A DNA stretch of 64,000 nucleotides from a virus (taxonomy: Duplodnaviria; Caudoviricetes): positions 32,001-96,000 of the IMG/VR virus record IMGVR_UViG_2928716645_000002; one strand, written 5' to 3'. The notes below the pieces were generated by a model. The model saw only the letters and a list, made by a program, of their open reading frames with translations. It ran no database searches and was not told the DNA's origin. Positions 22,401 through 36,363 of the stretch are shown in pieces. Every line of letters begins with the position of its first letter. The stretch's first letter is position 1. Made by a program: the position numbers and the translations under genes.

Positions 22401-24086
22401 TTAGAGCACCAGGAGACCGCGGCGCTTGAGCACCGATGCGCCTGTTGCTTCAGGGTTGGTTGCCATGAACCAAGCAGAATCGAACATCGCCATGACCGGA
22501 TCGATCTTGGCGTCGCCGGCGGTCTGCTTCGTGGCGCGGATCGCGGTCGCGGTCGGCTCAATCTTCAGATTGGCGACGCACCAGTCCATCATTGCGCTCG
22601 GCGCGTGGCGGAGCGTTCCGCTCGCCAGCTTCCGCTCGCAGGTTTTGATGGCATTCATCATGCCGAAGCCCTGCGGCGCTCCGAAGAGAAGCTTGGCGTC
22701 GACCGTGACGCCGATCTCGTCGAGGGCGTCGGTGAACTCGCCGAGCCCCGCGGGGTCGACGGCAACGCCGCCGAGCAGTCCGCGATCCTTCACCAGCTTG
22801 ATGATGCGGACAATCCTCGACACGTCGTCGAGCTCGTCGTCGACGATCGTCAGATCTCCGGCATTCTCGAAGTCAGTGAGCCGCGGAGCGATTGCCGGCC
22901 TGCGATCGAGGACACCTCGGTGGCACCAAGCGTGAGACCAAAGCAGCCAATGTCGCGTAACCGCGTGCCTGCCCAGCAAACTCAGGCCGAAGAGGTCGTC
23001 GAGACCGCCGCCGTCCACGCCTGGCACGATCACGTCACAGACGCGAAACAGCGAGCGGAACGTGATCGCTTTGTCAGATCGGCGGGTCCAATATTCCGCC
23101 CCCGGCCAGCGATTGGCCCGGAGGTTCATTCCGATCTCGATGTTGAGATGCTTGGCGAGGAAGGTTCGAAGCGCGTCCTCGTTGCCGCGCTGGGCTTTGG
23201 TCAGTTCGCTCAGCAGCCATTCGGTGCTGACGGACAGTTCGAGGTTCGGGTTTGTGATCCGCCAGTTCGCTGGATCGAGGTAGGACTTGGCCTTGATCAT
23301 GAACTCCGGGAATTCGTAGAGCATCCCGAAGCTGGTCGGATCCACGATTTTGCCGTCGCGCACGTCGCGGAAGTAGTCGAGCTTCTCCTTGAACACGCCG
23401 GCCGGCGGCGCGTCAGACTGCGTCGAGAGATAAACGACGAAGCCTTCTTTCCTCGAGACCAGACCACCGGTCGCCTCCTGGAACATCGCCGCGGCGTTGG
23501 CGCGCTTGCCGAAGATCCAGAGCTCGTCGACGAGGACGAAGGCGGCCTTCTTGCCGCCGACGACGTCGGTATCGGCGGCGACAACCTTCAGGACCGCGTC
23601 CGTCGTCAGGTGTGTGATCTGACGGTAGTTGTCCTGGACGTGCAGCAGATCCCGCAGTTTCGGATGCAGCCTGACCATGGCTGCCGCCGGCGTGAACGAG
23701 TTGTTGGCGATCTCGATCGTCGGCGCCAGGATCAGCAGTTCCGCGCCGTGACGCCAGTTCCTGACCAAGGCCGTGACCATGATGCCGGCGGCGATCGTCG
23801 ACTTGGTGTTCTTCTTGCTGATCAGCAGGAAGAACTCACGGATGAGCCGTTTGGCCTGCTCGTGGTCGTAGGCGCCAAAGATCGTCCGGACGAAGTCAAA
23901 GACCCAGGGCTCGCAGACCTCGCCGAACGTTGGTTGCCGCGGCAGGTCGTAGATCTGCAGCGACTTGAACACCTCGAGCGCGGCATCCGCCTCGCTCGGG
24001 AAGAGCGGGTCGAAGGGGACGAGCGTGTCTCCCGCCACGACGCGCCTTTCCCAGTCGGGACAGGCGGTGGACCAGACCGGCGTCAT
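22401..24086 (-). CDS. terL: Terminase large subunit
   Basis: Start MTPVWSTACPDW; Walker A ISKKNTKST, Walker B VLVDELW, nuclease GVDGGGLDDL, KIDP.MA. Confidence 0.97.
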   Translation of the reverse strand: MTPVWSTACPDWERRVVAGDTLVPFDPLFPSEADAALEVFKSLQIYDLPRQPTFGEVCEPWVFDFVRTIFGAYDHEQAKRLIREFFLLISKKNTKSTIAAGIMVTALVRNWRHGAELLILAPTIEIANNSFTPAAAMVRLHPKLRDLLHVQDNYRQITHLTTDAVLKVVAADTDVVGGKKAAFVLVDELWIFGKRANAAAMFQEATGGLVSRKEGFVVYLSTQSDAPPAGVFKEKLDYFRDVRDGKIVDPTSFGMLYEFPEFMIKAKSYLDPANWRITNPNLELSVSTEWLLSELTKAQRGNEDALRTFLAKHLNIEIGMNLRANRWPGAEYWTRRSDKAITFRSLFRVCDVIVPGVDGGGLDDLFGLSLLGRHAVTRHWLLWSHAWCHRGVLDRRPAIAPRLTDFENAGDLTIVDDELDDVSRIVRIIKLVKDRGLLGGVAVDPAGLGEFTDALDEIGVTVDAKLLFGAPQGFGMMNAIKTCERKLASGTLRHAPSAMMDWCVANLKIEPTATAIRATKQTAGDAKIDPVMAMFDSAWFMATNPEATGASVLKRRGLLVL

Positions 24087-24283
24087 TGCGATCGCGACGA
24101 CCGGTGCCGCCGGCGAAACTCTTTGTACCGGCCAGTTACGAGGGGCTCGGCGCGCCGCTTGCCACACCTGCTGGCGATGCCGACGGCCCGGTCAAGACGG
24201 CAATGTGGTAGGCGCCGCATGATCGCCATCGTGACGATGCGCGTCCCCGGGCGCTCGTGGTACGATCCCCGCCCGAGCGGCAT
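24083..24283 (-). CDS. Small very basic protein between terS and terL
   Basis: 66 aa; fills the terS-terL gap; its TGA overlaps the terL ATG (ATGA). Confidence 0.4.
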   Translation of the reverse strand: MPLGRGSYHERPGTRIVTMAIMRRLPHCRLDRAVGIASRCGKRRAEPLVTGRYKEFRRRHRSSRSQ

Positions 24284-24288
24284 GGCGA

Positions 24289-24750
24289 TTACTCGTTGAC
24301 CGCAGTGTTGTCGACGACCAGGCCAATCTTCGGCGGCTCCGGCGGCTGGAAGGCGCCTGACGCCGCGACGAGCTCAGCGGCCGCCTTGCGCTCGGCCTTT
24401 TTCCCAACCTTCTCGGGCTTCGGCGGCTGCAGCGGCGCCGGCGCCTGGCTGCCGGCACGCGCGAGATCGGACATCGCCTGCGCGGCCGCGGCCACGCGCG
24501 TCATCTCCTCAAGCTTTTTGATGCAGGTCGCGTTGCCTTTCTTGGCCTGCGTGTAGAGCATACCGACGACCTCGGCCCGCTTCTTGGCGACACCGGTCGC
24601 GATCTCCTCCCGGAACGACTTCACCAGCGTCGGGGTCGATATCCCGAGCGCTCGAGCGCAGTCGTCCTGGGACATCCCGCACGAGATCCACTGCTCAACC
24701 TTCGTGCGCTGCGTTTTTGTCGGCTTGAACGCCGGCCGCCCTCGGCCCAT
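24289..24750 (-). CDS. terS: Terminase small subunit
   Basis: Start MGRGRPAFKPT; HTH GMSQDDCARALGISTPTLVKSF.EE; GKKAE...AA; upstream of terL. Confidence 0.85.
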   Translation of the reverse strand: MGRGRPAFKPTKTQRTKVEQWISCGMSQDDCARALGISTPTLVKSFREEIATGVAKKRAEVVGMLYTQAKKGNATCIKKLEEMTRVAAAAQAMSDLARAGSQAPAPLQPPKPEKVGKKAERKAAAELVAASGAFQPPEPPKIGLVVDNTAVNE

Positions 24751-24807
24751 GCCGAAACTCCAATTTCTTTGCCAGTTTTGGCGTTCCGGCCGAATTTTCT
24801 GGCTGGC

Positions 24808-24886
24808 CAAAAAAAATTGCGGGAATGAGACCCCGTGCGGTAGGGGGTCCCGTCGGTTCCTAGACTTTCCGACCCCATACCCCCTT
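24808..24886 (-). other. Putative cos / packaging initiation region
   Basis: Minus strand GGGGGTATGGGGTCGGAAAGTCT...ACCGCACGGGGTCTCATTCCCGCAATTTTTTTT just upstream of terS. Resembles the G-run/T-run layout at cos ends of HK97-like HNH-terS phages. Exact nick not determined. Confidence 0.6.
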
Positions 24887-25102
24887 GGCCTCGAGCCGGT
24901 AGCGGCCATGGTGCATGCCGGCGCGTCGGTTGCGGGCTGGCGTCGGATTGGCTGGCGTTCAGCCTGGCCGAATAGTGTCAGCCCCTGCAGGCTATGTGCT
25001 GGCGCCGCGCCGCGCGCGGCAACCGCCCGCGCTCCAGTCTCGACTAGCTCGGTTGTGTGGTTGTGTCCTGTTGACGTGGCGGGCGCGCGCCGATCCGTCG
25101 GG

Positions 25103-25273
25103 CTATGCCGCACCGTGCGGCGCGCTGTCGCTTGGCAGTCCATCCCATGCGTCGGCGGCGCTGATGCAGCGCTCAACCCGGATGACCGGCAACACGATGA
25201 TGACTGCAGGTTGGCGCCGTTGTCGGCGGGCGCGGCGCGGTGCGGCGGGCTGTAGCTCGACTACCTCGCCCAT
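25103..25273 (-). CDS. Small hypothetical protein (56 aa)
   Basis: Hand translation MGEVVELQPAAPRRARRQRRQPAVIIVLPVIRVER...; same strand as the late operon. Confidence 0.4.
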   Translation of the reverse strand: MGEVVELQPAAPRRARRQRRQPAVIIVLPVIRVERCISAADAWDGLPSDSAPHGAA

Positions 25274-25290
25274 GCCGCGCCCCTGACATG

Positions 25291-25387
25291 CGAAACCCGC
25301 CGAGGCGGTGCGGCCTGGCGGGCTTTGGATTGCAGCGACAATGCGTCACCGTGCTTGCTCTGAATCGGAAATTGAGTCGGCTGTCAA
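25291..25387 (-). promoter_or_regulatory. Candidate late promoter with leader terminator (pR'/tR'-like)
   Basis: TTGACA (25387-25382, minus) followed about 55 nt later by hairpin AAAGCCCGCC...GGCGGGTTT (25326-25293). The -10 element is not clear. Confidence 0.4.
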
Positions 25388-25503
25388 ATCGCTGTTGCCC
25401 GGGTTGTCGGTGGATGATGGCGCCGACGGTGCGCCATGCCTCTCAATTCCGTGGTACTTGCCGGGCTAGATGACTGCGGCATAACTCAATCTTGAGGCGT
25501 CCA

Positions 25504-25815
25504 ATGATCGATACAAAGGCGAGTAAGGCAACAGCCAAGCGCAAGCCAGCGAGCCGGGCATTTGCATCCGCTGACACGTCACTGAGAATCAGCGCGGCCG
25601 AATTCCGGACCTGGCAGGAAGGCGCCGGGCTGTCGAATGCCGCAGCTGCCCGGCTGCTCTACGTGGCGGAAAACACGTTGGCACAATACCGCGCCAACGG
25701 CGCCGGTCCTGATATCGCCCGACAAATCTGGGCGATCATTGCAGGGATAAGGCCGGACACTGGGCGCCAACGCGCCGAGCTACTGGGCCGGATCAATGCG
25801 GCCCTAGACGGCTAA
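25504..25815 (+). CDS. XRE-like HTH protein, left end of the array
   Basis: ISAAEFRTWQEGAGLSNAAAARLLYVAENTLAQY helix-turn-helix. Confidence 0.7.
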   Translation: MIDTKASKATAKRKPASRAFASADTSLRISAAEFRTWQEGAGLSNAAAARLLYVAENTLAQYRANGAGPDIARQIWAIIAGIRPDTGRQRAELLGRINAALDG

Positions 25816-25854
25816 CGCCTCAATATTGCGATACCGACCCGGGCCAGCACAAAC

Positions 25855-25911
25855 TTTTTTCGCAATTTTGCGTTTTGCCAGTTGACGGCCGCGCGAATAT
25901 CTGCGCATGTG
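25855..25911 (+). promoter_or_regulatory. Candidate sigma70-type promoter for the array
   Basis: Phased T-tracts (UP-like), then TTGACG at 25882-25887; about 36 nt upstream of the first motif A hairpin. Confidence 0.45.
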
Positions 25912-25957
25912 CGCATCACCACGGCGCGATTGTGCGCAACTTCAAAGGCCCGGCGAA

Positions 25958-26122
25958 ATGATCCCCTTCATTTCCTTTTGCATCGCTAACCCGGCTTTCA
26001 CTCTGGCCATGCTCGCAGCGATCTATACCGCTTGCTGGGCCGCCCTTGCCCCCTTCCTTTACGCGCCCGCCAAGTCTCGGCGCCTTTCGATCCGGCGCCG
26101 TGCGCGCCGCGACCGCCGCTAG
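25958..26122 (+). CDS. Small membrane protein
   Basis: ATG after motif A/AAAGG; hydrophobic segment then Arg-rich tail. Confidence 0.55.
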   Translation: MIPFISFCIANPAFTLAMLAAIYTACWAALAPFLYAPAKSRRLSIRRRARRDRR

Positions 26123-26133
26123 GAGCTAGGCAC

Positions 26134-26352
26134 ATGCGAACGAAGCAAACATTGAAAACCGGAACGCGCATTGAATTGCATGGCACGCCAGCAATCGGCG
26201 CCTTTCCCGCGGTCGCTCCGGAGAGCGCGACAATCGCGCAATGGACTGCGGCAAGCGGTCCGCTCATGCCGGGTTGGCATATCGTCAAGTTTTCCGATGG
26301 CGGAAGGCTTTGCATCCACGAAAACCGATTCCGGGTTATCGACAACCGCTAA
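26134..26352 (+). CDS. Small SH3-like beta protein
   Basis: AGGAG SD; MRTKQTLKTGTRIEL...WHIVKFSDGGRLCIHENRFRVI. Confidence 0.65.
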   Translation: MRTKQTLKTGTRIELHGTPAIGAFPAVAPESATIAQWTAASGPLMPGWHIVKFSDGGRLCIHENRFRVIDNR

Positions 26353-26396
26353 CCCGTTCCACCGCGCAACTGTGCGCAACTGAAAAGGCCAAGCCC

Positions 26397-26477
26397 ATGG
26401 AAGATTTTCTAGACTTCACCCTGTTTTGCATCGCGGCGGTTGCCGGGACGTTCATCATCTTCGCTTGCTGTCTCTGA
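26397..26477 (+). CDS. 26 aa hydrophobic peptide
   Basis: Follows motif A + GAAAAGG; MEDFLDFTLFCIAAVAGTFIIFACCL. Confidence 0.45.
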   Translation: MEDFLDFTLFCIAAVAGTFIIFACCL

Positions 26478-26567
26478 CGATTTGCAGCCTATGCCGTGCG
26501 CGTCACGGCATAACCGGCAAACCGCCGACCCGCGCAATAGTGCGCAACTCAAAAGGAAGTAACTGAA

Positions 26568-27446
26568 ATGACTGTCTACACCGCAACCGCCCGTTTCGAT
26601 GGTACCGCCCGCGCGCTCACCGAGAACGAATTGCGCAAGTTGGCGCCGTCGGTCTTCGCGGTCGACGCGCACCATTCGCGTTCGGAGCGTTTCCAGCCTA
26701 TCCCGACTTTCGACGTGCTGCGCGCGCTGATGGCGGAGGGCTTCCAGCCCGTCGGCGCGAAACAGAGCGTTGCCCGGCTCGATGATCGCCGCGATTTCAC
26801 AAAGCATCTGATCCGGCTCCGCCGTCTCGACAACGCCACGGCGTACACCGTCGGTGATACCGTCTGCGAAATCCTCCTCAAGAATGCGAACGACGGAACG
26901 TCCGCCTATGACTTGATCGCAGGCCTTTTCCGTGTCCGTTGCCTCAATAGCCTTGTGGCACAGGTCGGCACGGTCGAGTCCGTCAAGGTCCGCCATACCG
27001 GCTCCGCGCAGGATGTTTCGCACAAGGTGATTGAAGGCACCTATCGCGTGCTGGGCGAGGCTCAGAAGGCGCTGGCGGCGCCGCAGGACTGGGCGCGCCT
27101 GGCCCTCAACACCGACGAAAAGCAGGTGCTGGCGGAAGCCGCGCACGTTCTGCGGTTCGGTGACGCGGAAGGCGAAACCAGCACGCCGATTCAGCCCGCG
27201 CAGTTGCTGCAGCCGCGTCGCCGCGACGACGTCGCCGCCGATCTGTGGACCACGTTCAATGTGGTTCAGGAAAACGTCATTCGTGGCGGGCTGACGGCGC
27301 GCGGCCGCGACGCCAATGGCCGGCGGCGCCGCGTCACCACCCGCGCCGTTAACGGGATCGATCAAGACGTGAAACTGAACCGCGCCCTGTTCACCCTCGC
27401 CGCCAAGATGGCGGAGCTCAAGGGCGCCGCCCCGCTCGCCGCCTAA
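26568..27446 (+). CDS. DUF932/DUF945 family protein (plasmid leading-region type)
   Basis: APSVFA..AH.SRSERF..IPT, FTKHLIRLR, EI.LKNANDGTSAY.L.AG.FR..CLN, DLWTTFNVVQEN.IRGG, GIDQDVKLNRAL. Confidence 0.9.
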   Translation: MTVYTATARFDGTARALTENELRKLAPSVFAVDAHHSRSERFQPIPTFDVLRALMAEGFQPVGAKQSVARLDDRRDFTKHLIRLRRLDNATAYTVGDTVCEILLKNANDGTSAYDLIAGLFRVRCLNSLVAQVGTVESVKVRHTGSAQDVSHKVIEGTYRVLGEAQKALAAPQDWARLALNTDEKQVLAEAAHVLRFGDAEGETSTPIQPAQLLQPRRRDDVAADLWTTFNVVQENVIRGGLTARGRDANGRRRRVTTRAVNGIDQDVKLNRALFTLAAKMAELKGAAPLAA

Positions 27447-27539
27447 GCGATTGCAGCCCATGCCCGGGCTTGTCCCGGGCATGATCGGCAACCGCCGGCA
27501 ACCGCGCAATTGTGCGCAACTCGAAAAGGGAAAACTGCC

Positions 27540-27644
27540 ATGAAGTATCGCCGCCACGAAACCGACCGCAAGCCCTGTGACAAGCGGACTCGCCGCGACG
27601 CGGTCCGCAACGGGAAGCGTGCTTACCTGAATTCCTGCCTGTGA
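27540..27644 (+). CDS. 34 aa Arg/Lys-rich peptide
   Basis: After motif A + GAAAAGGG; MKYRRHETDRKPCDKRTRRDAVRNGKRAYLNSCL. Confidence 0.5.
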   Translation: MKYRRHETDRKPCDKRTRRDAVRNGKRAYLNSCL

Positions 27645-27749
27645 GTACCGCTTCACTTTTGCGGCTTGTCCGCCTCTCATTCTTCGTCCGCGACGCTAGC
27701 GTGGTTATCAGCGTCGCAAGCATTCTCCTCATTCCCTAGGGAAACACCG

Positions 27750-28202
27750 ATGGAACTGAATAACCCTCATCTGCCGCGCAAAGGTGCCCGCGTCATGAAC
27801 GGCACCGATGATCGCGATTTGGGAGTCGTCATTGACGTCCGCGACAATCCCAACGGACCGGTACAGGTGAAATGGGACGGCGGAGAAACGGGTTGGCACG
27901 GCGCCGATGGTATCTATTTGGCGCGGCCGAACTCGTTTCTTTTCAACTGTTGCGCGGGCGACATCGCGCCCGATTGGTCGCAGTTCAAATCCCTGGAAAT
28001 CGGCGGGTGCGTCACCGAGACGGAAGAGAATGGCGACACGTTCACCATCGGCGGGAAGCCCGATAGTGAAGCCGAATTCTGGACGGTTTACGCCCGCCAC
28101 CATTCTGGCGAGGCGGAAGCGATCACGGATTGCAAAACCCGCGATGCGGCGGAATGCGCCGCCTCGCAACTGCGCGACCTTTCCCACCTTCCCATGACTT
28201 GA
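27750..28202 (+). CDS. Hypothetical protein (SH3-like N-terminus, acidic C-terminal domain)
   Basis: Start MELNNPHL; G.RV...LGVVID...VQVKWDG; AEFWTVY.RH..G.AEAITDC. Confidence 0.7.
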   Translation: MELNNPHLPRKGARVMNGTDDRDLGVVIDVRDNPNGPVQVKWDGGETGWHGADGIYLARPNSFLFNCCAGDIAPDWSQFKSLEIGGCVTETEENGDTFTIGGKPDSEAEFWTVYARHHSGEAEAITDCKTRDAAECAASQLRDLSHLPMT

Positions 28203-28293
28203 CGTTGCGACACTGCGCAGTGCCTGGCGCTGCGCAGCACGGAACGCCAAAGCGGACCAACGCGCGATTGTGCGCAACGAAAAGGACTCGGAC

Positions 28294-28497
28294 ATGCGAG
28301 GGATTTGGACTCTCTACGTTGACCAATACGGCAACCATTGGGGTGCCAGCACGGTGGCAGAGCTGCGCGCCAAGATCGGCCGCGGCAGGGTCGCCAAGAT
28401 GTATCGCGACAAGCCGCACGGCGGCGCCGTCCATTGCGGCTACATCGTTGGGCCGTATTGGTGCACGGCCTATCGGCCGGTTGAACTGGCCGCCTAG
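28294..28497 (+). CDS. Small hypothetical protein, ends LAA
   Basis: After motif A + AAAAGGA; MRGIWTLYVDQYG...KMYRDK..G..VHCGYIVG..W. Confidence 0.7.
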   Translation: MRGIWTLYVDQYGNHWGASTVAELRAKIGRGRVAKMYRDKPHGGAVHCGYIVGPYWCTAYRPVELAA

Positions 28498-28559
28498 CGG
28501 CGCCGTTTCGAGACTTCACCCCGCGCGATTGTGCGCAACTGAAAGAGGAGCAATTCAAC

Positions 28560-29123
28560 ATGGCTTGGCAGTTCTATGACTTTTTCGACCATCCGACCAT
28601 CGAAGGGCCGTTGCCCGAAAAGCGCTGGATCAAGCACGCCAGCGACAAGCGACACAAGGTCCGCCACAGCTCGAAAGTCACCCGCTCCACCGGCGGCGTA
28701 TCCGCCAATGACCTGAACGAACGGCACACGCTCGAATATGCCCGCTGGCTGGCCCAGCGCGACGGGATCACTATCCCGCCCGGCTCCGAATATATCGTTC
28801 AGCGGGCTGACGTGAACGTCCCGGGCAGCAAGCCTCAATCCCGAATCCGCGCGGTCGAATTCGGCAAGCGGCGGACCACGCAAAGCGGCTACGGTCGCAG
28901 CGCCTGCACTAGGCACCATTGGGACGTCGCCGCCCGGATCGAAATTCCGAACTGGGATTGGCAACCCGCCGAACCGGTTGAGGAGATCATCCCGGAAGCG
29001 GTCCCGGTCCCGGTTGCGCCTTCCTTCAAGATCCCGGCGCGGATCCTGCGCACGTCTTGCCTTGTGCCCGTTCTGGCGCGTGTCCCGGTTGCGCCTTCCT
29101 GCGCAATCCGGCTTGCGGCTTGA
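28560..29123 (+). CDS. Hypothetical protein, ends LAA
   Basis: After motif A + GAGGAG; Pro-rich C-terminal linker with two VPVAP copies. Confidence 0.7.
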   Translation: MAWQFYDFFDHPTIEGPLPEKRWIKHASDKRHKVRHSSKVTRSTGGVSANDLNERHTLEYARWLAQRDGITIPPGSEYIVQRADVNVPGSKPQSRIRAVEFGKRRTTQSGYGRSACTRHHWDVAARIEIPNWDWQPAEPVEEIIPEAVPVPVAPSFKIPARILRTSCLVPVLARVPVAPSCAIRLAA

Positions 29124-29494
29124 TGGTGGCGCCGATGAAACGCCAGCAAGCTCCGACGTTCAGTCAGTTGTGCGACGCGCTGCAGTCGCGCCCCGCTCCG
29201 TGCTCGCAAGCCGAGTGGCGCGAGGCCTCAACCGCCATGCGCCTGGCCCGCCGCCATCCCGGCCGCGTCGGCAGGACCATCTATATCGAGTGCGGGACGT
29301 TCGCGCGGCGCGTTTACCTTGAAGCGACCTGGGGCGGGATGAATTGCTACAACGGCCCGCACCCGTTCGGTTATGTCAACATGATCGCGCATCACCGATT
29401 CATGTTCCAGCAGGGACTGCGGGAAGGCCGCGTTGCGGAGGCAAGACAATTTGCGGAGGCCTCGCGCCTCCGCGGTCCGGTGCCGCTGCCATGA
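29123..29494 (+). CDS. Hypothetical protein
   Basis: TGATG-coupled to the upstream gene. Confidence 0.55.
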   Translation: MVAPMKRQQAPTFSQLCDALQSRPAPCSQAEWREASTAMRLARRHPGRVGRTIYIECGTFARRVYLEATWGGMNCYNGPHPFGYVNMIAHHRFMFQQGLREGRVAEARQFAEASRLRGPVPLP

Positions 29495-29598
29495 CGCGGA
29501 AGCCTCAACCCCGCAAACAGCGCTGCCCGTACTGCAGGCAGCTGCGGCCCTTCTACATGATCGCAGCGCACATCACCCAATGCGAGGCCCTACGGTAG
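29491..29598 (+). CDS. 35 aa C2HC zinc-finger peptide
   Basis: ATGA-coupled; CPYC-x11-H-x3-C. Confidence 0.55.
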   Translation: MTRKPQPRKQRCPYCRQLRPFYMIAAHITQCEALR

Positions 29599-29697
29599 GG
29601 TCTCGGCTACGGCCGATTTCCGCAGTGGATGACGTTCACCCCCGGCGGCGGCTGATTCCTAATTCGCGCGATAGTGCGCAAAGCGAAAGGATGACAC

Positions 29698-29895
29698 ATG
29701 CGAACAATCAAACCCGCGACGCCCGATAACGCAATTTGCCTCGGGAACGCGATAGAGGCGATGAAAAAGGCACGCCACTGGATGCGCGCGGCCGAATGCC
29801 CGAAGGCGCTCGAAGCGCTGCAGGAAGCGCTAAAAAGCGCGGAAGGTGCAAAGCGCCACATGCAACACCGGCTGAACCGCACCGCGGCCCGCTGA
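29698..29895 (+). CDS. Small helical hypothetical protein
   Basis: After motif A + GAAAGGA. Confidence 0.65.
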   Translation: MRTIKPATPDNAICLGNAIEAMKKARHWMRAAECPKALEALQEALKSAEGAKRHMQHRLNRTAAR

Positions 29896-29941
29896 ATTCT
29901 TCCCCCTCGGCTACGGCTAATTTTGAAAGGAGATCACCTCA

Positions 29942-30844
29942 ATGAGCACAATCACGATTTGGACTTGCACCACCGAAGGCGACAACTGCGGGACCGAAAC
30001 GACGGTCCATGCCACGGAAGCCGCGGCGGTGGATTATGTGCGCGGGAGCCTGCGCGATATCCTCAAGCGGAACCCCGAGCGCCTGGCCGCGATCGAGGCC
30101 GCGACCGCAGAGAATATCGCGGAGCTCTGGGAAGACTCCGTTGACGGCCCCTGCATCATCGAAGAGCAGGCCGTTGCGTTGCCGCCGTTCGCGGTTGCAA
30201 TCTATGAAACTCGGCACGGCGACGAAACGCGACTCTACCCCAACAGCGACGCGGCGCGCGCCTGGCGCAGCGAGATCGCCGCCGAGAACTGGGCGGCACG
30301 AATGGACGAGGACAAACCAGCCGATCCGGACGAGGTAGCCGAAGCCTATTTTGAGCGCGTCGGAGAGATGCGCGGCGATTTCTTCCGGCTCGAGGAATTG
30401 GAGATTGTCGGCGGCACAGTCCCGGTTGCGCCTGCGCAGGATTGGCGCCAGATCGCGCGCGACCTGGCCGCCGCGCTCGACTCCTGCACCCATCAGATTG
30501 GCCAGATGCGCGGCATGTTCAGCGACGAGGACGGCACAATTTCGGGAGCAGTTTCCGACGCCGAAGACGCAGCCGCAGCCTACCGCCGGGCGGCCGCCGG
30601 CCTCCCGCCTGCGCCCGCGCCACAATTCATCGGACAGGATGACCGCGCTTGCGCGGAAGGCTGGGGGCTGTTCGAGAACAGCGACACCGGCAAACTGGAA
30701 ATTCAGGCCGACGCCGAGTCCTCAATCTTTGTTTGCGACGGCGTGAGCCACGACGACGAAGCCGAGGTCTTCGTAAAGACTCAGGCAGCCGCGGGCAGCG
30801 AGTACCACGCCTTGGCGCTGCTGCGCGTCGGTACCGCGCAATAG
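29942..30844 (+). CDS. Acidic multi-module hypothetical protein
   Basis: GAAAGGAG SD; two similar N-terminal modules (T.VHATEAAA / TRLYPNSDAA), VPVAP linker, strongly acidic. Confidence 0.75.
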   Translation: MSTITIWTCTTEGDNCGTETTVHATEAAAVDYVRGSLRDILKRNPERLAAIEAATAENIAELWEDSVDGPCIIEEQAVALPPFAVAIYETRHGDETRLYPNSDAARAWRSEIAAENWAARMDEDKPADPDEVAEAYFERVGEMRGDFFRLEELEIVGGTVPVAPAQDWRQIARDLAAALDSCTHQIGQMRGMFSDEDGTISGAVSDAEDAAAAYRRAAAGLPPAPAPQFIGQDDRACAEGWGLFENSDTGKLEIQADAESSIFVCDGVSHDDEAEVFVKTQAAAGSEYHALALLRVGTAQ

Positions 30845-30900
30845 TCCCGGCTACGATCGATTTTGCACCCCCGAGCTACGGCCGATTTTGCAAACACCGC

Positions 30901-30930
30901 TTGACAGATTCGGCCGACGCAAATTAGAGA
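30901..30930 (+). promoter_or_regulatory. Candidate internal promoter
   Basis: Perfect TTGACA at 30901, TAGAGA 18 bp later; sits between a motif B pair and a motif A copy. Confidence 0.5.
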
Positions 30931-30971
30931 ACCAGCCCTGCGCGATTGTGCGCAAATTGAAAGGACGAGAA

Positions 30972-33119
30972 ATGCAGCATTCCGCCACCTATTCGCCCGA
31001 CGATAACAAGCTGCGCCTTTATCCGGCGCACCGCCTCGACGCCGAGGATTACGCGCGCGTGAAGGCCGCCGGCTTCAAGTGGGCGCCGCGTCAAGAACTG
31101 TTCGTCAAACCGACCTGGAGCCCCGGCGCCGAAGACTTGCTGATTGAGATGTGCGGCGAAATCGGCGACGAAGACACCACGCTGACCGACCGCGCCGAGC
31201 AGCGCGCGGACCGCTTCGAGGAGTACAGCGACAAGCGGCTTTCGGAAGCCAACCGCGCGCGCGAGGCCGTGGACCAGATCGCGGAGCGGTTTGCGATGGG
31301 GCAGCCGATCTTGGTCGGCCATCACTCGGAGAAGAGCGCGCGGCGCGACAAGGAGAAGATGGACGCCGGCATGCGCAAGGCGCTGAAGCTCTGGGACACC
31401 TCGAATTATTGGACTGCGCGCGCGGCCGGCGCAATCGCTCACGCCAAATACAAGGAACTGCCGGCGGTGCGTCATCGCCGCATCAAGACAATTGAGTCCG
31501 ACAAGCGGAAGTTGGAACGGCTGCAGGCGGACACTGAACGCCAGCTGAAGGCCTGGCAGATCGTCGCCGACATCACCGACCCGGAGAAGCAGCGCGCGGC
31601 CGGCTTGGCCGTGGCCAACGCGGGCGGCTTTTGGTCGATGTCGTTTCCGCTGGCGGATTATCCGCGCGACCCGCCGGCCTCGCAGTATGAGGGACCGATG
31701 GGGCTTTGGTCGGCGATTGACGGGAACGTCATCACCGCCGCGCAGGCTGCCGCTATCGCGATTCCGAGCCTGGAGCGGTCCGGGCCTTCGCGAGCCCGTT
31801 GGTTGGCCCACTATGACAACCGGCTGGCCTACGAACGCGCGATGCTGGCCGAACAGATCGGCGCCGAGGCCACCGCTAACCCGCTGGCCGACCGCTTCGC
31901 CTTCGCCGTCGGCGGTCAGATTCAGACGCGCCGCGGCGACGAGTGGCTTACGATTGTGAAGGTCAGCAGGGGCGCTAACGGTTCGGTTTCCAGCATTCAA
32001 ACCGCGGCCCCCTCAGGATCGCGCGGGCGCGGTGTTTACTGGAAGGTCGAAAGCGTCCGCGACTATCGCGCGCCGACCGCCGAGAACGTCGCCACGGCGA
32101 AGGCAGCCACCAAGCTGCCGCCGCTCTGCAACTATCCCGGCGAGGGATTCCGCGAAATGACGGAGGCCGAATGGAAGGGCCGCCGGCAGTGGTCGGATTT
32201 CTCCTATGTGCGCGGCATTGAGGCAACCGAGACCGCACAGAAGCACCGCGCGCGATTCATGCCGGTACCGGGCAAGATGTGGGAGCGCCAGCAAGTTTTC
32301 ATTACGGATGCAAAGCGCGTCGATCCGCCCAGGATCGCGCCGGCAGCCGAGCCGCAGGCGCCCGCGGAATTTGTCGCCGAATATGTAGCGCCGCCGGTCG
32401 CCGATCTTGACGCCACGCTGGAAGTGGTCGGCGAGATCATGGCGGAGCCGTCGCCGGTTGAGACGGTGCCGGAGGTCGTCCCGGTTGCGCCCGCGGAGGC
32501 GTCGCGCCATCTCCCGGATACGGCCGATTTGCCGGCGCCCTCTTCGGCCGACACGTTCGAGGCCATGCGGGCAATGCTGAAAGGCGGCGGCGTGCAAGTC
32601 GTCGTCGCGCCGCAGTTGTTCCCGACATCGCACGCACTGGCGGGCGACGTCGCAGAGCTCGCCGACATCCGAGACGGGCACCGTGTGCTTGAGCCTAGCG
32701 CCGGCACTGGCGTGTTGATCGAGGCGGCGCGCCGCAATGTCGACGGCTACATCGATATTGTCGCGGTCGAGATCAACCCGACGCTTGCGCGCGGCCTGGC
32801 CGGTCGGTTTCCCGGCGTCAAGGTCATCAACGCCGACTTCCTCGAGGTGGACAGCTCCGAGATGGTCGGGAAGTTCGACCGCATCCTGATGAATTCGCCA
32901 TTCGAACGCGGCGCAGACATCAGACATATCGAGCACGCGCGCACGTTTCTGCGGCCTGGTGGCCGGCTCGTCGCGATCTGCGCGGACGGTCCACGCCAGC
33001 GCGCGAAGTTCGAACCGATCGCGACGGAGTATCGCGCCCTGCCCGCCGGGTCCTTCAAGGCCGCCGGCACAATGGTCAACACGGCGCTCGTCGTCATCGA
33101 CGGGCCGCCGCCGGGGTAA
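30972..33119 (+). CDS. DUF3560-domain protein fused to an N6-adenine-type DNA methyltransferase
   Basis: ATYSPDDNKLRLY, GQPILVGHHSEKSARRD (DUF3560); C-terminal VLEPSAGTG, AVEIN, ADFL, FDRILMNSPF, LRPGGRLVAI. Confidence 0.88.
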   Translation: MQHSATYSPDDNKLRLYPAHRLDAEDYARVKAAGFKWAPRQELFVKPTWSPGAEDLLIEMCGEIGDEDTTLTDRAEQRADRFEEYSDKRLSEANRAREAVDQIAERFAMGQPILVGHHSEKSARRDKEKMDAGMRKALKLWDTSNYWTARAAGAIAHAKYKELPAVRHRRIKTIESDKRKLERLQADTERQLKAWQIVADITDPEKQRAAGLAVANAGGFWSMSFPLADYPRDPPASQYEGPMGLWSAIDGNVITAAQAAAIAIPSLERSGPSRARWLAHYDNRLAYERAMLAEQIGAEATANPLADRFAFAVGGQIQTRRGDEWLTIVKVSRGANGSVSSIQTAAPSGSRGRGVYWKVESVRDYRAPTAENVATAKAATKLPPLCNYPGEGFREMTEAEWKGRRQWSDFSYVRGIEATETAQKHRARFMPVPGKMWERQQVFITDAKRVDPPRIAPAAEPQAPAEFVAEYVAPPVADLDATLEVVGEIMAEPSPVETVPEVVPVAPAEASRHLPDTADLPAPSSADTFEAMRAMLKGGGVQVVVAPQLFPTSHALAGDVAELADIRDGHRVLEPSAGTGVLIEAARRNVDGYIDIVAVEINPTLARGLAGRFPGVKVINADFLEVDSSEMVGKFDRILMNSPFERGADIRHIEHARTFLRPGGRLVAICADGPRQRAKFEPIATEYRALPAGSFKAAGTMVNTALVVIDGPPPG

Positions 33120-33196
33120 TTCCGGCCGCCCTCCCGCTTACGACCGATTTCCCATCCTCCCCTCGGCTACGGCCGATTCCGAAAGGAGCTTGATTC

Positions 33197-33754
33197 ATGT
33201 CCGACCGCTTTACCTCTGAGGAAATGCACCTGCTGAAGCAACTTCAGAACGGCCCGCAGCGCGACCGCGACCGCATACCTGAACGTGTTCTCGTCAATAG
33301 CGGGATGGCCCGGCGTGCCGATTCTGGGATGATCGAGATCACAAACGCCGGCCGCGCATGGATGGATTTGCCTGACGTCGGCGAGGAACTCGGCCGCGCT
33401 CGCGCCAGCATCCATAGTTTCGACCGCTTCAAGGCAGGCGATCCGGCGCGCAGCATTTTCCGAAAGATGGGCCTTCTGGAGTATCTCGATGCGGCGCAGA
33501 GCTGGGGGCAGTTGCGGGCGCTCATCGTGCGATTCAACGACCCCGACAAGGGTCACTTCGTGAAGCGAGCCAAGCAATGCGACGGCGTCTGCAGTTCGGG
33601 CGAGCGCGTCTTACTGCATGCCATCCTCTACGTGACCGACTTCGCCTGGCTGGCCGACAAGCTGGGTGGCAAAGAGGTATGGCAGAACATGAACCGTGCC
33701 GGCGGTGAACACCGTGCGGCGGTTGCGGCCTGCATCGGCGCTGAGGTGTACTGA
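33197..33754 (+). CDS. Hypothetical protein (wHTH-like N-terminus)
   Basis: GAAAGGAG SD after a motif B pair; LVNSGMA...IEITNAGRA. Confidence 0.7.
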   Translation: MSDRFTSEEMHLLKQLQNGPQRDRDRIPERVLVNSGMARRADSGMIEITNAGRAWMDLPDVGEELGRARASIHSFDRFKAGDPARSIFRKMGLLEYLDAAQSWGQLRALIVRFNDPDKGHFVKRAKQCDGVCSSGERVLLHAILYVTDFAWLADKLGGKEVWQNMNRAGGEHRAAVAACIGAEVY

Positions 33755-33755
33755 C

Positions 33756-34034
33756 ATGGCAAGCGCGCAACTGCTAATCGCCGCCGGCTTCAGGGTCACC
33801 ACGCGCGCCGAGTTCGACGCCGCCACCGACGTGCCCGCCGGGATGCGCCTGGTGGCCACGCGCATCTTCAAGCGATGGGGCGGCGACTTCGTGGTGTACG
33901 ACCCGGCCGGCGGCGATGACGGCTGGCTACTGATCGATTATGATCGCGACCAGATCATCGGCGAGACGATCGAGCACCTCGGGCGGCTCGCACCGCCCGA
34001 GCCGCCGGCGCCGGCACAAGGTTCGCTGTTCTGA
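33756..34034 (+). CDS. Hypothetical protein with C-terminal clamp-binding-like motif QGSLF
   Basis: Start MASAQLL; ends PAPAQGSLF. Confidence 0.65.
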   Translation: MASAQLLIAAGFRVTTRAEFDAATDVPAGMRLVATRIFKRWGGDFVVYDPAGGDDGWLLIDYDRDQIIGETIEHLGRLAPPEPPAPAQGSLF

Positions 34035-34078
34035 TACCGGATACGATCGATTTTGAAACTGGAAAGGAGAGAACGCAG

Positions 34079-34528
34079 ATGCAGCATAGCAACGTGATTA
34101 ACCGCCTTCTCGGTACCGGCACACTCACATGGGCAAGCGCCGAACGCCGGAGCGACCGTTACGGAACGGTTTATCTGATACCGCATCGCCATAACTCCCT
34201 CACGCGCAATCCCTCTGTGTCGCTCATCGACGTTGAGGCGGCTCGCGCGTTTGAGGGACGCCGGGGAGACCTGGTCGCGGTTGTGAAAGAGACACGGGAA
34301 AGCACTCACATCGGAGACCTGTTCCGCGGCGTCTCTCCCCGTACGCCGGAGGTCGGCCAAATCATCGCGCTCGGTTCGGGAACGCTGATTATTGAGCCCG
34401 CACCAGAGGGCGGCGTGATGGTCGGCCTTCGACCCGACGACGGTCGCGATAGCGATTGGTTGCGCATCCGGGCGCTCTACGACGCGCATGAACAGACCGT
34501 CGACCTGCACTTCCATCCGACGAAGTGA
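34079..34528 (+). CDS. Hypothetical protein
   Basis: GGAAAGGAG SD; LTW...ERRSDRYG.V.L, ETRESTHIGDLFRG motifs. Confidence 0.7.
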   Translation: MQHSNVINRLLGTGTLTWASAERRSDRYGTVYLIPHRHNSLTRNPSVSLIDVEAARAFEGRRGDLVAVVKETRESTHIGDLFRGVSPRTPEVGQIIALGSGTLIIEPAPEGGVMVGLRPDDGRDSDWLRIRALYDAHEQTVDLHFHPTK

Positions 34529-34538
34529 GGCCGCGGTC

Positions 34539-34913
34539 ATGTCGAGAACCGTCCGCCGCGTGCCCGCCGACTGGCAGCATCCTCGCAACTCCTCCGGCCG
34601 CTACATCCCGCTGGCTTATGCCCTCCCGGATGCGCCCACGCCCTACCCGGCCGCCAGCTATATGCCGGCATGGCCGACCGCGGAGCGGACGCATTGGCAG
34701 TTGTACGAGACCACCAGCGCCGGCACGCCGGTTTCGCCGCCCTGCCCATCGCCCGAGGCTTTGGCCAAATGGCTGGCCGACCACCACACGGAGGCCGCGC
34801 CGGGATTCACGGGAACTGAGGCGCAATGGCTCGGCGCAATCAAGCGCGGCGGCGTCATCCCGCCGGTGATGTCCGTCGGCAAGCGCCTGGTCAATCCGCT
34901 CGACTACACCTGA
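34539..34913 (+). CDS. Hypothetical protein
   Basis: MSRTVRRVPADWQHP...YMPAW...THWQLYETTSAGTPVSP...EALAKWL. Confidence 0.7.
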   Translation: MSRTVRRVPADWQHPRNSSGRYIPLAYALPDAPTPYPAASYMPAWPTAERTHWQLYETTSAGTPVSPPCPSPEALAKWLADHHTEAAPGFTGTEAQWLGAIKRGGVIPPVMSVGKRLVNPLDYT

Positions 34914-35006
34914 TCGGCCGGGACTCCCGGCTACGATCGATTTTGTGCTACCCCCTCGGCTACGGCCGATTCCGGGCGACTGTGCCCAACCGGAAAGGAT
35001 CCTGAG

Positions 35007-35330
35007 ATGTCACCACCACGATTTGTCCACCGCAAGATCTCGAGCGACGATTTCAAGGCCGAACTGGCCAAGCAGGGCATGTCGGTGTCGGCGTTCGCGC
35101 GGGTCTGGTGCCAGAACCTCTCGACCGTCAGGAAGTGGGCGAACGGCGGGAACGATATCCCGACCTGGGTGCCGATCGCGCTGACCATGATGACGCTGCC
35201 GAATGCCCACGGGACCGCACGCATGGCGGCCGCGGCGATGATCCAGCAGGACCGGCTGCATCCCGAGCTCGGTGAATTTCCCTATCAGAAACTGCGGCAG
35301 ATGCCGGCGGACGACGAGATCGAGGAATAG
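35007..35330 (+). CDS. XRE-like HTH protein, right end of the array
   Basis: ISSDDFKAELAKQGMSVSAFARVWCQNLSTVRKWANG..DIP.WV; preceded by motif B pair and the variant motif A. Confidence 0.75.
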   Translation: MSPPRFVHRKISSDDFKAELAKQGMSVSAFARVWCQNLSTVRKWANGGNDIPTWVPIALTMMTLPNAHGTARMAAAAMIQQDRLHPELGEFPYQKLRQMPADDEIEE

Positions 35331-35336
35331 CCCCGG

Positions 35337-35552
35337 CTACGATCGATTTTGCGCGCTGCGCCTTTTCTTCGCCGCGCTCCGCTTCTTCGCCGGTGATCGC
35401 TTGGCGGCTGGCATCGGCGTCGACTCCTTTGCCGCTGCGGCAGCCGCAGCGTCCCGAGCATCGAGCTCCCGCTTCTGCGCCTGCATCCGCTCGAACCTGG
35501 CTTCGCGCTGAGCCCGCAGCGCGTCGGCGCGCGGTGATGGTTCGCGTCCCAT
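35337..35552 (-). CDS. Small basic Ala/Lys-rich protein
   Basis: MGREPSPRAD...AKRSPAKKRSAAKKRR; TAATG-coupled; its stop lies inside the last motif B. Confidence 0.5.
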   Translation of the reverse strand: MGREPSPRADALRAQREARFERMQAQKRELDARDAAAAAAAKESTPMPAAKRSPAKKRSAAKKRRSAQNRS

Positions 35553-35827
35553 TAAGCTGGGTCCTCCCATCGGACCGGCGCTTCGCCGACCTCGAGCATA
35601 ACCGGCGGGTGCGTGCGCGAGATAATCCGAAGATGCACCGCCGCCCCTGCATTGAGCCGTGCCAGCTCTTCCGCCGTCGGTTTCCATGCCGACGTTAGCG
35701 ATGGCAGCGAGTCGTTCAGCACCTCAGCGCGGATCGGGAGATCGAAACATTCACCGTTTCGCTCCTCGTTCCAGTCTTTCGGAGCGGCCAACACCATGTT
35801 GGAGCCGGAGATCTTGGCAATTTCCAT
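35552..35827 (-). CDS. Hypothetical phage protein
   Basis: APKDWN....C..LP.R...SAWKPT.EEL..LNAG...HPPV pattern. Confidence 0.7.
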   Translation of the reverse strand: MEIAKISGSNMVLAAPKDWNEERNGECFDLPIRAEVLNDSLPSLTSAWKPTAEELARLNAGAAVHLRIISRTHPPVMLEVGEAPVRWEDPA

Positions 35828-35836
35828 TGTGCTCTC

Positions 35837-36181
35837 CTACGATCTCATGCGGTTTGCTCGAGCTTGAATGCCGGCCCGGGTGTTGTGGCTGTTGCAGGCG
35901 CAGCGGCCATTAGCCAGGTCGCGGGCCAGATCCGGGCGATCTCTGACGTCTTGGATGTGATCGGCGTACATCTGGTCGCCACGCGCCTTGCTGCGCTCGC
36001 AGCGGACACCATTCTCAACGTGCTCGCAGCGCCAGCCGGCGCGCTGTTTTACCTTCAACGCCCACTGCTGGTGCTCGACGGTCTGATAATGCGGGTCCGC
36101 CCGCTTCTCCGGAGGCTTCACCTTCCTGGTGTCCAGCGTCGGGACGCGCGGGCTGAGAGACGGAATTCGCGATCGCCTCAT
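35837..36181 (-). CDS. HNH endonuclease (packaging-associated, gp74-like)
   Basis: Y....W...VK.RAGWRC...C...ADHI..V.D....D..NG.C.C..H; ATGA-coupled start MRRSRIPSL. Confidence 0.85.
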   Translation of the reverse strand: MRRSRIPSLSPRVPTLDTRKVKPPEKRADPHYQTVEHQQWALKVKQRAGWRCEHVENGVRCERSKARGDQMYADHIQDVRDRPDLARDLANGRCACNSHNTRAGIQARANRMRS

Positions 36182-36363
36182 TTCTTTTCTCCCCGCCGCG
36201 GTCCGAACATCTTCCGCCCCATCGCGCGCACCATCTCCCGCTGGTCCCAGGTCATGTGGTCGTTGTCGACATCGAGCAGCAAAAGACCGTATTCCCGCCA
36301 CACCCGCTGCTTCGTCTCGAGCGGGGTTTCCCGCGTGTTGGGCGCAAACCGTCCGAGCGACAT
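36178..36363 (-). CDS. Small hypothetical protein
   Basis: MSLGRFAP...; coupled to the HNH gene. Confidence 0.55.
   Translation of the reverse strand: MSLGRFAPNTRETPLETKQRVWREYGLLLLDVDNDHMTWDQREMVRAMGRKMFGPRRGEKK

Follow-up and report, generated by a model that had tools for sequence, protein, structure and literature searches.

A short repeat with complementary arms, here called hairpin A, stands before nine genes of an accessory-gene array in a siphovirus-type prophage, and comparison with related phages indicated that it is a real stem-loop under selection for pairing. The window, that is, the whole stretch of 64,000 nucleotides (nt) that was analyzed, corresponds to bases 32001-96000 of the 108-kb IMG/VR provirus record IMGVR_UViG_2928716645_000002. 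Judging from its sequence and layout, hairpin A appears to be a previously undescribed variant of the phage leader hairpin or start-associated sequence and most likely acts in RNA.

A sequence-only reading of the window had described nine copies of this repeat, each followed by AA, a Shine-Dalgarno (SD) sequence and an ATG, and both statements were borne out exactly. Eight copies match the 14-nt motif GCGCR-AYWG-TGCGC, the ninth has a compensated stem (GGGCG-ACTG-TGCCC), and all nine are on the plus strand. Behind every copy come AA, an A-rich spacer, an SD of the AAGG/GGAG type and the ATG, with 18-23 nt from the end of the motif to the ATG (9/9). The copies are the following (bits are scores of the covariance model R1, described below; aa, amino acids; ORF, open reading frame):

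25924-25937, plus strand: copy 1 (GCGCG-ATTG-TGCGC), 25.7 bits; ATG at 25958, ORF of 54 aa, membrane-like
26364-26377, plus strand: copy 2, 24.7 bits; ATG at 26397, ORF of 26 aa; 12 nt past the stop codon of the upstream ORF
26532-26545, plus strand: copy 3, 23.7 bits; ATG at 26568, DUF932 protein (292 aa)
27504-27517, plus strand: copy 4, 27.8 bits; ATG at 27540, arginine-rich peptide of 34 aa
28262-28275, plus strand: copy 5, 25.2 bits; ATG at 28294, 67 aa
28523-28536, plus strand: copy 6, 25.7 bits; ATG at 28560, 187 aa; 26 nt past the preceding stop codon
29666-29679, plus strand: copy 7, 21.7 bits; working ATG at 29698, 65 aa; a copy of another repeat, Repeat B, just upstream
30940-30953, plus strand: copy 8, 24.6 bits; ATG at 30972, DUF3560 plus methyltransferase protein of 715 aa
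34974-34987, plus strand: copy 9 (stem GGGC/GCCC), 22.1 bits; ATG at 35007, XRE-type helix-turn-helix (HTH) protein of 107 aa, the last gene of the array

At copy 7, an ATG at 29691 that opens only 12 codons was not taken as the start, and 29698 was used instead.

The 16-nt pattern composed of the motif and the following AA gave 9 exact matches in the window and 11 matches at two or fewer mismatches, versus 1.57 expected from shuffled sequences, and none of 100 shuffles reached 11. Across the 108-kb record the GCGC form was present eight times in the forward direction and never in reverse. The covariance-model search proposed in the earlier reading was carried out with R1, which was made from 38 diverse members of the hairpin A family. 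It found exactly the nine copies (21.7-27.8 bits, E ≤ 0.006) and separated them from the rest of the window, where the next match scored 16.1 bits; on the minus strand of the 64-kb window there was nothing better than E = 0.4. When the whole window was compared with Rfam, no match was observed at the gathering score, and two chance-level matches were located elsewhere in the array at E ≤ 5.

The evidence that the fold itself is selected came from loci of relatives, which were retrieved via the DUF932 protein and without reference to the motif (names such as L009 or G013 are labels of related loci or records compared with the window). Many of these loci contain a hairpin plus SD unit before the DUF932 gene and its neighbors, with stems other than GCGC. 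The stems GCGC, GGCC, GGTC, TGGC, GCCC, TCTC and CGGC were found, each with its complement, and L011, L015, L016 and L023 are phages that each combine several different stems. The orthologous leader of the DUF932 gene, which is headed by copy 3 in the window, retains the fold in relatives with different stems. The compensatory stem change of copy 9, already pointed out in the sequence-only reading, is shared by the L009, L010 and L069 orthologues, in which the loop varies. A pairing-blind test set was assembled from all C-R-A..G cores followed by an SD and a start on the gene strand (n = 150, chance matches kept), and its covariation score was 0.346 compared with 0.174 for column shuffles, a value reached by 0 of 500 shuffles; when the partners were slid by 1-3 columns, the score was 0.09-0.22. 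All three outer pairs were formed in 38 of 68 plus-strand cores linked to an SD and a start and in 11 of 171 other cores (Fisher p = 4e-16). In the curated alignment (n = 38), 96.8% of the cells are paired, four pair types were counted at every outer pair, and all 38 members have C-G as the fourth pair. Phages whose DUF932 proteins share just 45-70% identity still have the R-A loop start and the closing C-G pair in common, while their stems have turned over. Because both partners of the outer pairs are replaced, often in a single phage, and the loop is kept, these data indicate that the fold is under selection.

The fifth pair of the stem requires a different reading from the one initially given. 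Within the window, six copies have G and three have A at position 5, all nine have T at position 10, and A-C is found there in none, in agreement with the claim that A-T and G-T alternate without the mirror A-C. Across the family this claim does not hold. Among the 38 diverse members the pair is G.U in 18, A-U in 14 and A.C or A.A in 6, and never G-C, C-G or U-A, and in the wider family A.C is present nine times in cleanly paired hairpins. Position 5 is a purine in all 38 members and position 10 is mostly U. The sister sub-families have AAUCAC, AAUCCA or GAUCAU between the closing C and G, so that the loop is R-A-N-N-G-U in the window phage and R-A-U-C-N-N in the sister sub-families. These counts and the sister loops suggest that positions 5 and 10 are conserved by identity (R...U) as recognition letters rather than as a structural pair, and hairpin A reads best as a C-G-closed loop starting with R-A. 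The fifth-pair asymmetry accordingly fails as evidence for G-U pairing in a plus-strand transcript. A wobble test for the folding strand was rejected as well, because A.C and A.A do occur at the fifth pair in the wider family and because G.U is no more frequent than A.C among the outer pairs.

The orientation and the spacing of the hairpin argue for the sense RNA. R1 gave 51 matches in 1.11 Mb of related proviruses anchored on DUF932, and 49 of these were on the gene strand. The distance from the end of the stem to the SD has a mode of 7 nt and is 6-8 nt in 103 of 134 cases, and that to the start codon is 17-23 nt in 117 of 134, despite differing spacer sequences. The whole leader is about 30 nt long and consists of AAC-N, the hairpin, AAC, about 4 nt, an extended SD, 6-9 nt and the AUG, the hairpin forming its 5' half at positions -18 to -37 relative to the start codon. 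Copies 2 and 6, located 12 and 26 nt past stop codons, must lie inside a polycistronic transcript since there is no room for an intergenic promoter. The layout is not that of an intrinsic terminator, because the hairpin is followed by AAC and an A-rich spacer and not by a U-tract. SD accessibility was slightly above that obtained with shuffled upstream sequence (0.566 versus 0.526, p = 7e-5). Hairpin A therefore most likely forms in the sense RNA. The proposal of a shared post-transcriptional signal thus stands as the best reading, on the strength of the strand bias and the SD spacing; it is the wobble argument for it that had to be abandoned.

Three other ways in which such a leader might act were tried and rejected. 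An outer helix sequestering the SD is not a general feature, because mean SD pairing was not above that of the shuffled-upstream controls. A mini-ORF that would start in the hairpin's 3' half, at a conserved GTG/ATG, was discarded since stops before the main start were no commoner in the mini-ORF frame than in the two other frames (26, 26 and 17 of 115 per frame). A trans-acting antisense RNA was likewise set aside, as no conserved anti-loop sequence was present outside the coding regions of the window.

The distribution of the motif shows that hairpin A is specific to these phage arrays. In two Bradyrhizobium genomes of 8.3-8.4 Mb, the exact pattern and the strong R1 matches form one same-strand cluster each, with 6-12 copies within about 10 kb in a single prophage array and 1-3 isolated matches elsewhere. 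Equal frequency in both orientations across the host genome, which the sequence-only reading had named as a finding that would speak against it, was consequently not observed. REP/BIME-type palindromes (repetitive extragenic palindromes and bacterial interspersed mosaic elements) occur in hundreds of copies over host intergenic regions and in both orientations. A host-wide repeat of this type was rejected, since the two Bradyrhizobium genomes confine the strong matches to one array and one strand. Single 16-mer matches in unrelated taxa were at the estimated chance level for 596 Gb, and a stem-agnostic scan of IMG/VR for the loop followed by AAC and an SD returned mostly noise among the matches listed. 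Four Rhizobiales plasmids that encode a DUF932 protein about 70% identical have no hairpin A before genes, and the sole R1 match in them is on the opposite strand, inside a gene.

Leaders of other kinds were noticed in the course of these comparisons. Another clade of DUF932-bearing phages (L020, L025, L036 and L043) has small-gene arrays with a different conserved leader of about 45 nt (e.g. L036, 1500-3520), which consists of GTTTTGCCGCGTTCA, a variable loop, ACGCGA and then TAGGAGAGCAAACAA-ATG and likewise holds a small hairpin immediately 5' of the SD. In the Rhizobiales plasmids L422 (316-405 and 4660-4749) and L423 (5911-6000), a structured-looking leader of about 90 nt, …CCCCCGGAAAGACCGGGG…CCCTTCGGG…GGAGACAGAC-ATG, precedes DUF932 and DUF736 genes and is unrelated to hairpin A.

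The mechanism that we favor, to which we assign about an even chance, is that hairpin A works as an RNA stem-loop within a standard translation-initiation leader and that a sequence-specific candidate factor binds it and so co-regulates the cassettes. The portable leader of about 30 nt would head each independently translated cassette of the array, and the factor would recognize the closing C-G pair together with the loop. From its place at -18 to -37, it would tune the loading of the 30S subunit, most simply by repression, and perhaps mRNA stability too, in all cassettes at once. A purely physical block is disfavored by the conservation of the loop and closing pair, by the weakness of the stems and by loops of neither the GNRA nor the UNCG kind, and the fixed distance to the SD argues for an action on ribosome loading.

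Several findings weigh against this mechanism. No phage protein accompanies the motif wherever it occurs, each HTH family being present in a subset only; the 100%-complete record G013, with 7 copies, has neither HTH nor methyltransferase; and the loop is identical whichever HTH family is present. Thermodynamically, the hairpin is weak: about six of the nine local contexts contain it in their minimum-energy fold (as a 5-pair stem or as a 4-pair stem with a hexaloop), its z-scores are not significant, and 58% of 120 members have a pairing probability above 0.5. Moreover, a hairpin of the non-template DNA strand in the transcription bubble would give identical statistics, and the G.U versus A.C counts do not tell which strand folds, which leaves orientation and spacing as the basis of the sense-strand assignment.

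As to the factor itself, the genes at the two ends of the array come into consideration:

25504-25815, plus strand: first array gene, basic protein of 103 aa, HTH-like by inspection; candidate regulator
35007-35330, plus strand: last array gene, XRE/Cro-fold HTH protein of 107 aa, itself behind copy 9; candidate regulator

Homologues of each of these proteins are found in some motif-bearing phages only. Neither gave a match in Pfam or PHROG; the first gave no PDB sequence match, and NCBIfam returned none for either array HTH. The AlphaFold model of the last gene product (pLDDT, the predicted local distance difference test, 88) had weak fold matches, the best at E = 0.018, to HigA2, MqsA, C-proteins and Aca1/2/10. 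Since the anti-CRISPR-associated (Aca) regulators Aca1 and Aca2 are HTH proteins that act on hairpins of 5' untranslated regions (5'UTR), the XRE-type HTH genes of the array would be, by analogy, the first partner candidates. In a search for a universal protein partner, the HTH families, the DUF3560-methyltransferase and any ORF family within 10 kb were considered, and none was common to all motif loci, which makes a host factor a live alternative. A Pfam search of the L078 array found nothing.

A further-reaching form of the same idea, possible although doubtful, is that hairpin A is the "address label" of a phage-specific post-transcriptional regulon, in which a single factor (possibly a host protein or the ribosome and not a phage regulator) would read the C-G-closed R-A loop 7 nt before the SD and a dozen interchangeable, unrelated cassettes would be turned on and off together. 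If so, any gene recombined behind the leader would join the regulon automatically, and the array would offer a plug-and-play socket for accessory and anti-defense genes.

The other explanations bear partly on promoter-like sequences, which were predicted by eye before two of the nine copies; a consensus scan for promoters and terminators gave no excess over shuffles, and none at the hairpin copies. The sites concerned are as follows:

25882-25910, plus strand: sigma-70-like promoter candidate before copy 1 (TTGACG, 17 nt, GCATGT), predicted from sequence
30901-30929, plus strand: second sigma-70-like promoter candidate, before copy 8 (TTGACA, 17 nt, TTAGAG), inferred from sequence
25903-25914: inverted repeat GCGCA-TG-TGCGC, with hairpin A's own arms, over the -10 hexamer of the first promoter candidate
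25861-25872: inverted repeat CGCAA-TT-TTGCG, upstream of the -35 hexamer of the first promoter candidate

Sites resembling TTGACR-N17-TATGG are present at the same place as the first candidate in L011 and L016. From the predicted starts, copy 1 would begin about 7 nt, and copy 8 about 4 nt, into the transcript.

It is unlikely that hairpin A is an RNA element working through its structure, as a 5' stabilizer, a processing boundary or an SD insulator, with no dedicated binding factor. Such an element would not be expected to retain its R-A loop start and closing C-G pair through the turnover of its stems, nor to have short, weak stems and loops outside the stable GNRA/UNCG kind. This explanation does accommodate the freedom of the stem sequence, the SD being slightly more open than in the controls and the failure to find a universal phage partner, and the position of copies 1 and 8 just after the predicted transcription starts is the geometry for 5'-hairpin protection. 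In its processing version, the polycistronic transcript would be cut in the C/A-rich linker between the variable stem-loop that trails every gene and hairpin A, which would leave each cistron a protective 5' hairpin; several copies do follow a larger variable stem-loop preceded by GATTGCAG.

A composite intercistronic module was recorded upstream of several copies as a separate observation. It comprises GATT(T)GCAG, a variable stem-loop of 9-10 pairs and the C/A-rich linker, and its stems differ in sequence between copies and phages with the pairing retained:

26479-26531 and 27449-27503 of the window: composite intercistronic module
9930-9990 and 12180-12240 of L078: the same module

A duplex-DNA operator, of the stoperator type or like the promoter operators of Aca systems, at which a prophage HTH repressor would block initiation or elongation through the array, seems improbable. 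In its favor, two HTH genes bracket the array (the first one identified by sequence inspection). At the first promoter candidate, an inverted repeat with the same arms covers the -10 hexamer and a related one is found ahead of the -35, and L5-type stoperators share with hairpin A the many copies, the intergenic location and the common orientation with transcription (as cited in PMC3203893). The two inverted repeats at 25861-25872 and 25903-25914 may be DNA operators. At hairpin A itself, however, the arms differ within one phage and yet remain complementary, which excludes a conventional dimer operator on duplex DNA, and the conserved letters form the asymmetric center, the reverse of what such an operator would show; moreover, the fixed spacing of 7 nt to the SD and the location of a copy 12 nt past a stop codon would be meaningless for a DNA site.

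Still more improbable is a co-transcriptional signal, that is, a nut/boxB-like RNA hairpin, a pause hairpin or a hairpin of the non-template DNA strand like the RfaH ops element, which would recruit an antitermination or coupling factor to every cassette and so carry transcription past the intergenic stem-loops. Known systems of this type have one or two sites per operon versus at least nine here, no boxA-like companion was seen, and the tight SD spacing would be left unexplained. The size of hairpin A is that of boxB (5 pairs and a loop of 4-6 nt), its strand specificity is compatible, stem-loops without U-tracts lie between several cassettes, and an arginine-rich peptide of 34 aa is encoded at 27540-27641; this peptide, however, is restricted to the closest relatives. 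The same ORF (34 codons, behind copy 4) gives an arginine/lysine-rich product that is conserved in L009, L010, L011 and L069 only.

Apart from their presumed role in expression, the leaders mark the places at which the arrays have been rearranged. Homology blocks were compared with the close relatives L009, L010 and L069, whose DUF932 proteins are 92-96% identical, and 9 of about 60 block ends fell within 15 nt of a copy. At copy 2, homology with L009 and L069 resumes 2 nt upstream; at copy 6, the L009 block begins 3 nt upstream; at copy 7, the blocks of L009, L010 and L069 end 2-12 nt downstream; and at copy 8, the L010 block begins exactly at the copy. L010 is without exactly the stretch between copies 7 and 8. 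The block ends at the copies and this gap indicate that the repeated leaders are crossover points for the gain, loss and exchange of cassettes. That the repeat is kept solely as a recombination linker, like PeSL-type junctions and with no role in expression, is hardly credible despite these breakpoints and the clean deletion or insertion between copies 7 and 8, because complementary arms are unnecessary for crossover homology and the covariation, the loop conservation and the fixed SD distance indicate selection on a folded, expressed element.

A second repeat of the array, Repeat B, has the linear core TACG-N3-(G/A)ATT, usually GGCTACGRYCGATTT, and is present in 11 plus-strand copies and none on the minus strand:

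29608, 29912, 30852, 30877, 32519, 33139, 33168, 34042, 34932, 34961 and 35338, plus strand: copies of Repeat B

It stands before the SD of three genes without hairpin A, and copies 7 and 9 of hairpin A each have it immediately on their 5' side. The spacer that separates its two blocks varies in relatives without keeping pairing, and Repeat B thus looks like a linear binding site rather than a hairpin. One copy (32519-32535) is within the coding sequence 30972-33116, in the linker between the DUF3560 and methyltransferase parts, which suggests that the fusion gene originated when two cassettes became joined at such a repeat.

All nine copies of hairpin A are inside the array, whose surroundings are those of a siphovirus-type prophage. 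The minus strand encodes a tail fiber, a tape measure, an HK97-type capsid, a ClpP-like protease, a portal, TerL and a TerS-like protein, and beyond the array there is the HNH gene followed by a replication module with HTH-M78, DnaB, primase, C5-methylase and DnaN:

22404-24167, minus strand: TerL
24292-25176, minus strand: TerS-like gene (terS)
25504-35330, plus strand: accessory-gene array of about 19 mostly small genes, between terS and the HNH gene
26568-27443, plus strand: DUF932 gene (292 aa)
30972-33116, plus strand: DUF3560 plus methyltransferase fusion gene (715 aa)
35840-36301, minus strand: HNH gene

The last two plus-strand genes of this list are the only two of the approximately 19 array genes with family matches. 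Nine independently initiated array genes have hairpin A, three have Repeat B in its place and one has neither, and the remaining genes are tightly coupled to their upstream neighbor. In HK97-like phages, the TerS and HNH genes usually flank the cos site. The whole plus-strand array sits between the TerS-like and HNH genes (24292-36301) and would then occupy one end of the packaged genome. The host probably belongs in or near Bradyrhizobium, as indicated by homologues of the last array gene and by the two whole genomes with the motif cluster. No close relative was found among cultured annotated phages, and a look through public runs turned up no RNA source.

Leader repeats before phage accessory genes are known, namely the start-associated sequences and their extended form (SAS/ESAS), the PeSL elements and the Aca motifs, rarely with clear proof of folding. 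The hairpin A family unites strong covariation, even within one genome, with a strict position relative to the SD and up to about a dozen copies per prophage. It should therefore be a clean system for studying the post-transcriptional co-regulation and the exchange of fast-evolving, unrelated cargo genes in temperate phages, and R1 provides a practical marker for such arrays and their little-known genes in soil prophages of the Bradyrhizobium type.

Among these known systems, SAS/ESAS of the Cluster K mycobacteriophages occur as 11-19 co-oriented copies at non-structural genes of a temperate siphovirus, SAS being a 13-bp linear motif of the GGGATAGGAGCCC type that contains the SD and lies 3-8 nt from the start; both are absent from the host genome and have no assigned function, and the inverted repeats of ESAS had little support for RNA pairing (PMC3203893). 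Hairpin A resembles SAS in being co-oriented, multi-copy, absent from the host genome and located directly before the start codons of unrelated non-structural genes in a temperate siphovirus, but its sequence is different, its SD is outside the repeat core and its pairing is backed by covariation. PeSL (promoter-early stem-loop) elements of T4-type phages combine a strong sigma-70 promoter with a terminator stem-loop between small non-essential genes of a hyperplastic region, and the genes gained, lost or replaced among close relatives are explained by recombination between the copies (PMC2839356). Hairpin A is similarly a short repeated regulatory module at the crossover points of modular shuffling; in contrast to PeSL, a promoter-like site precedes just two of the nine copies, a U-tract is missing, and what is conserved is the leader hairpin with its SD.

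The boxB sites of lambda and P22 and the MS2/PP7 operators have stems of 4-5 pairs and a small conserved loop read by a protein, those of the MS2 type controlling ribosome access, and lambda-type nut sites combine boxA with a boxB bearing a GNRA-like pentaloop, are present once or twice per operon and have an arginine-rich partner of the N type. Hairpin A shares the 4-5-pair stem and the small conserved loop. It differs in the loop (A-N-N-G flanked by R and U), in geometry and in a far higher copy number, and, unlike in MS2-type operators, the SD and the start codon are outside the hairpin. A conserved boxA-like companion was not seen in the hairpin A alignments, and neither an N-like nor a coat-like partner of hairpin A was identified. 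The L5 stoperators, as cited in PMC3203893, are also many co-oriented short intergenic sites of a temperate phage, but they are asymmetric duplex-DNA sites without complementary arms, whereas the arms of hairpin A covary.

The closest parallel was found with Aca1 and Aca2, HTH regulators whose targets are 5'UTR hairpins with their ends about 20 nt short of the start codon; the Aca1 RNA motif shows covarying pairs and directly follows the transcription start, further motifs are located between the genes of an operon, a related inverted repeat is present in the promoter, and up to three motif sets have been reported (PMC13551039). Unlike in the Aca systems, there are nine to twelve copies of hairpin A per array, the array HTH proteins match no Aca family by sequence (their fold being generically XRE-like), the same loop is found with different HTH families or with none, and a cognate regulator does not always accompany the motif. 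Like the Aca1 and Aca2 motifs, however, hairpin A is small, covaries and ends 18-23 nt before the start (a nearby transcription start being predicted for copies 1 and 8 only), and it lies between genes of a phage accessory array with an HTH gene at its end and a same-arm inverted repeat in a promoter candidate. By analogy of layout, Aca1/Aca2 would thus be the nearest precedent for hairpin A.

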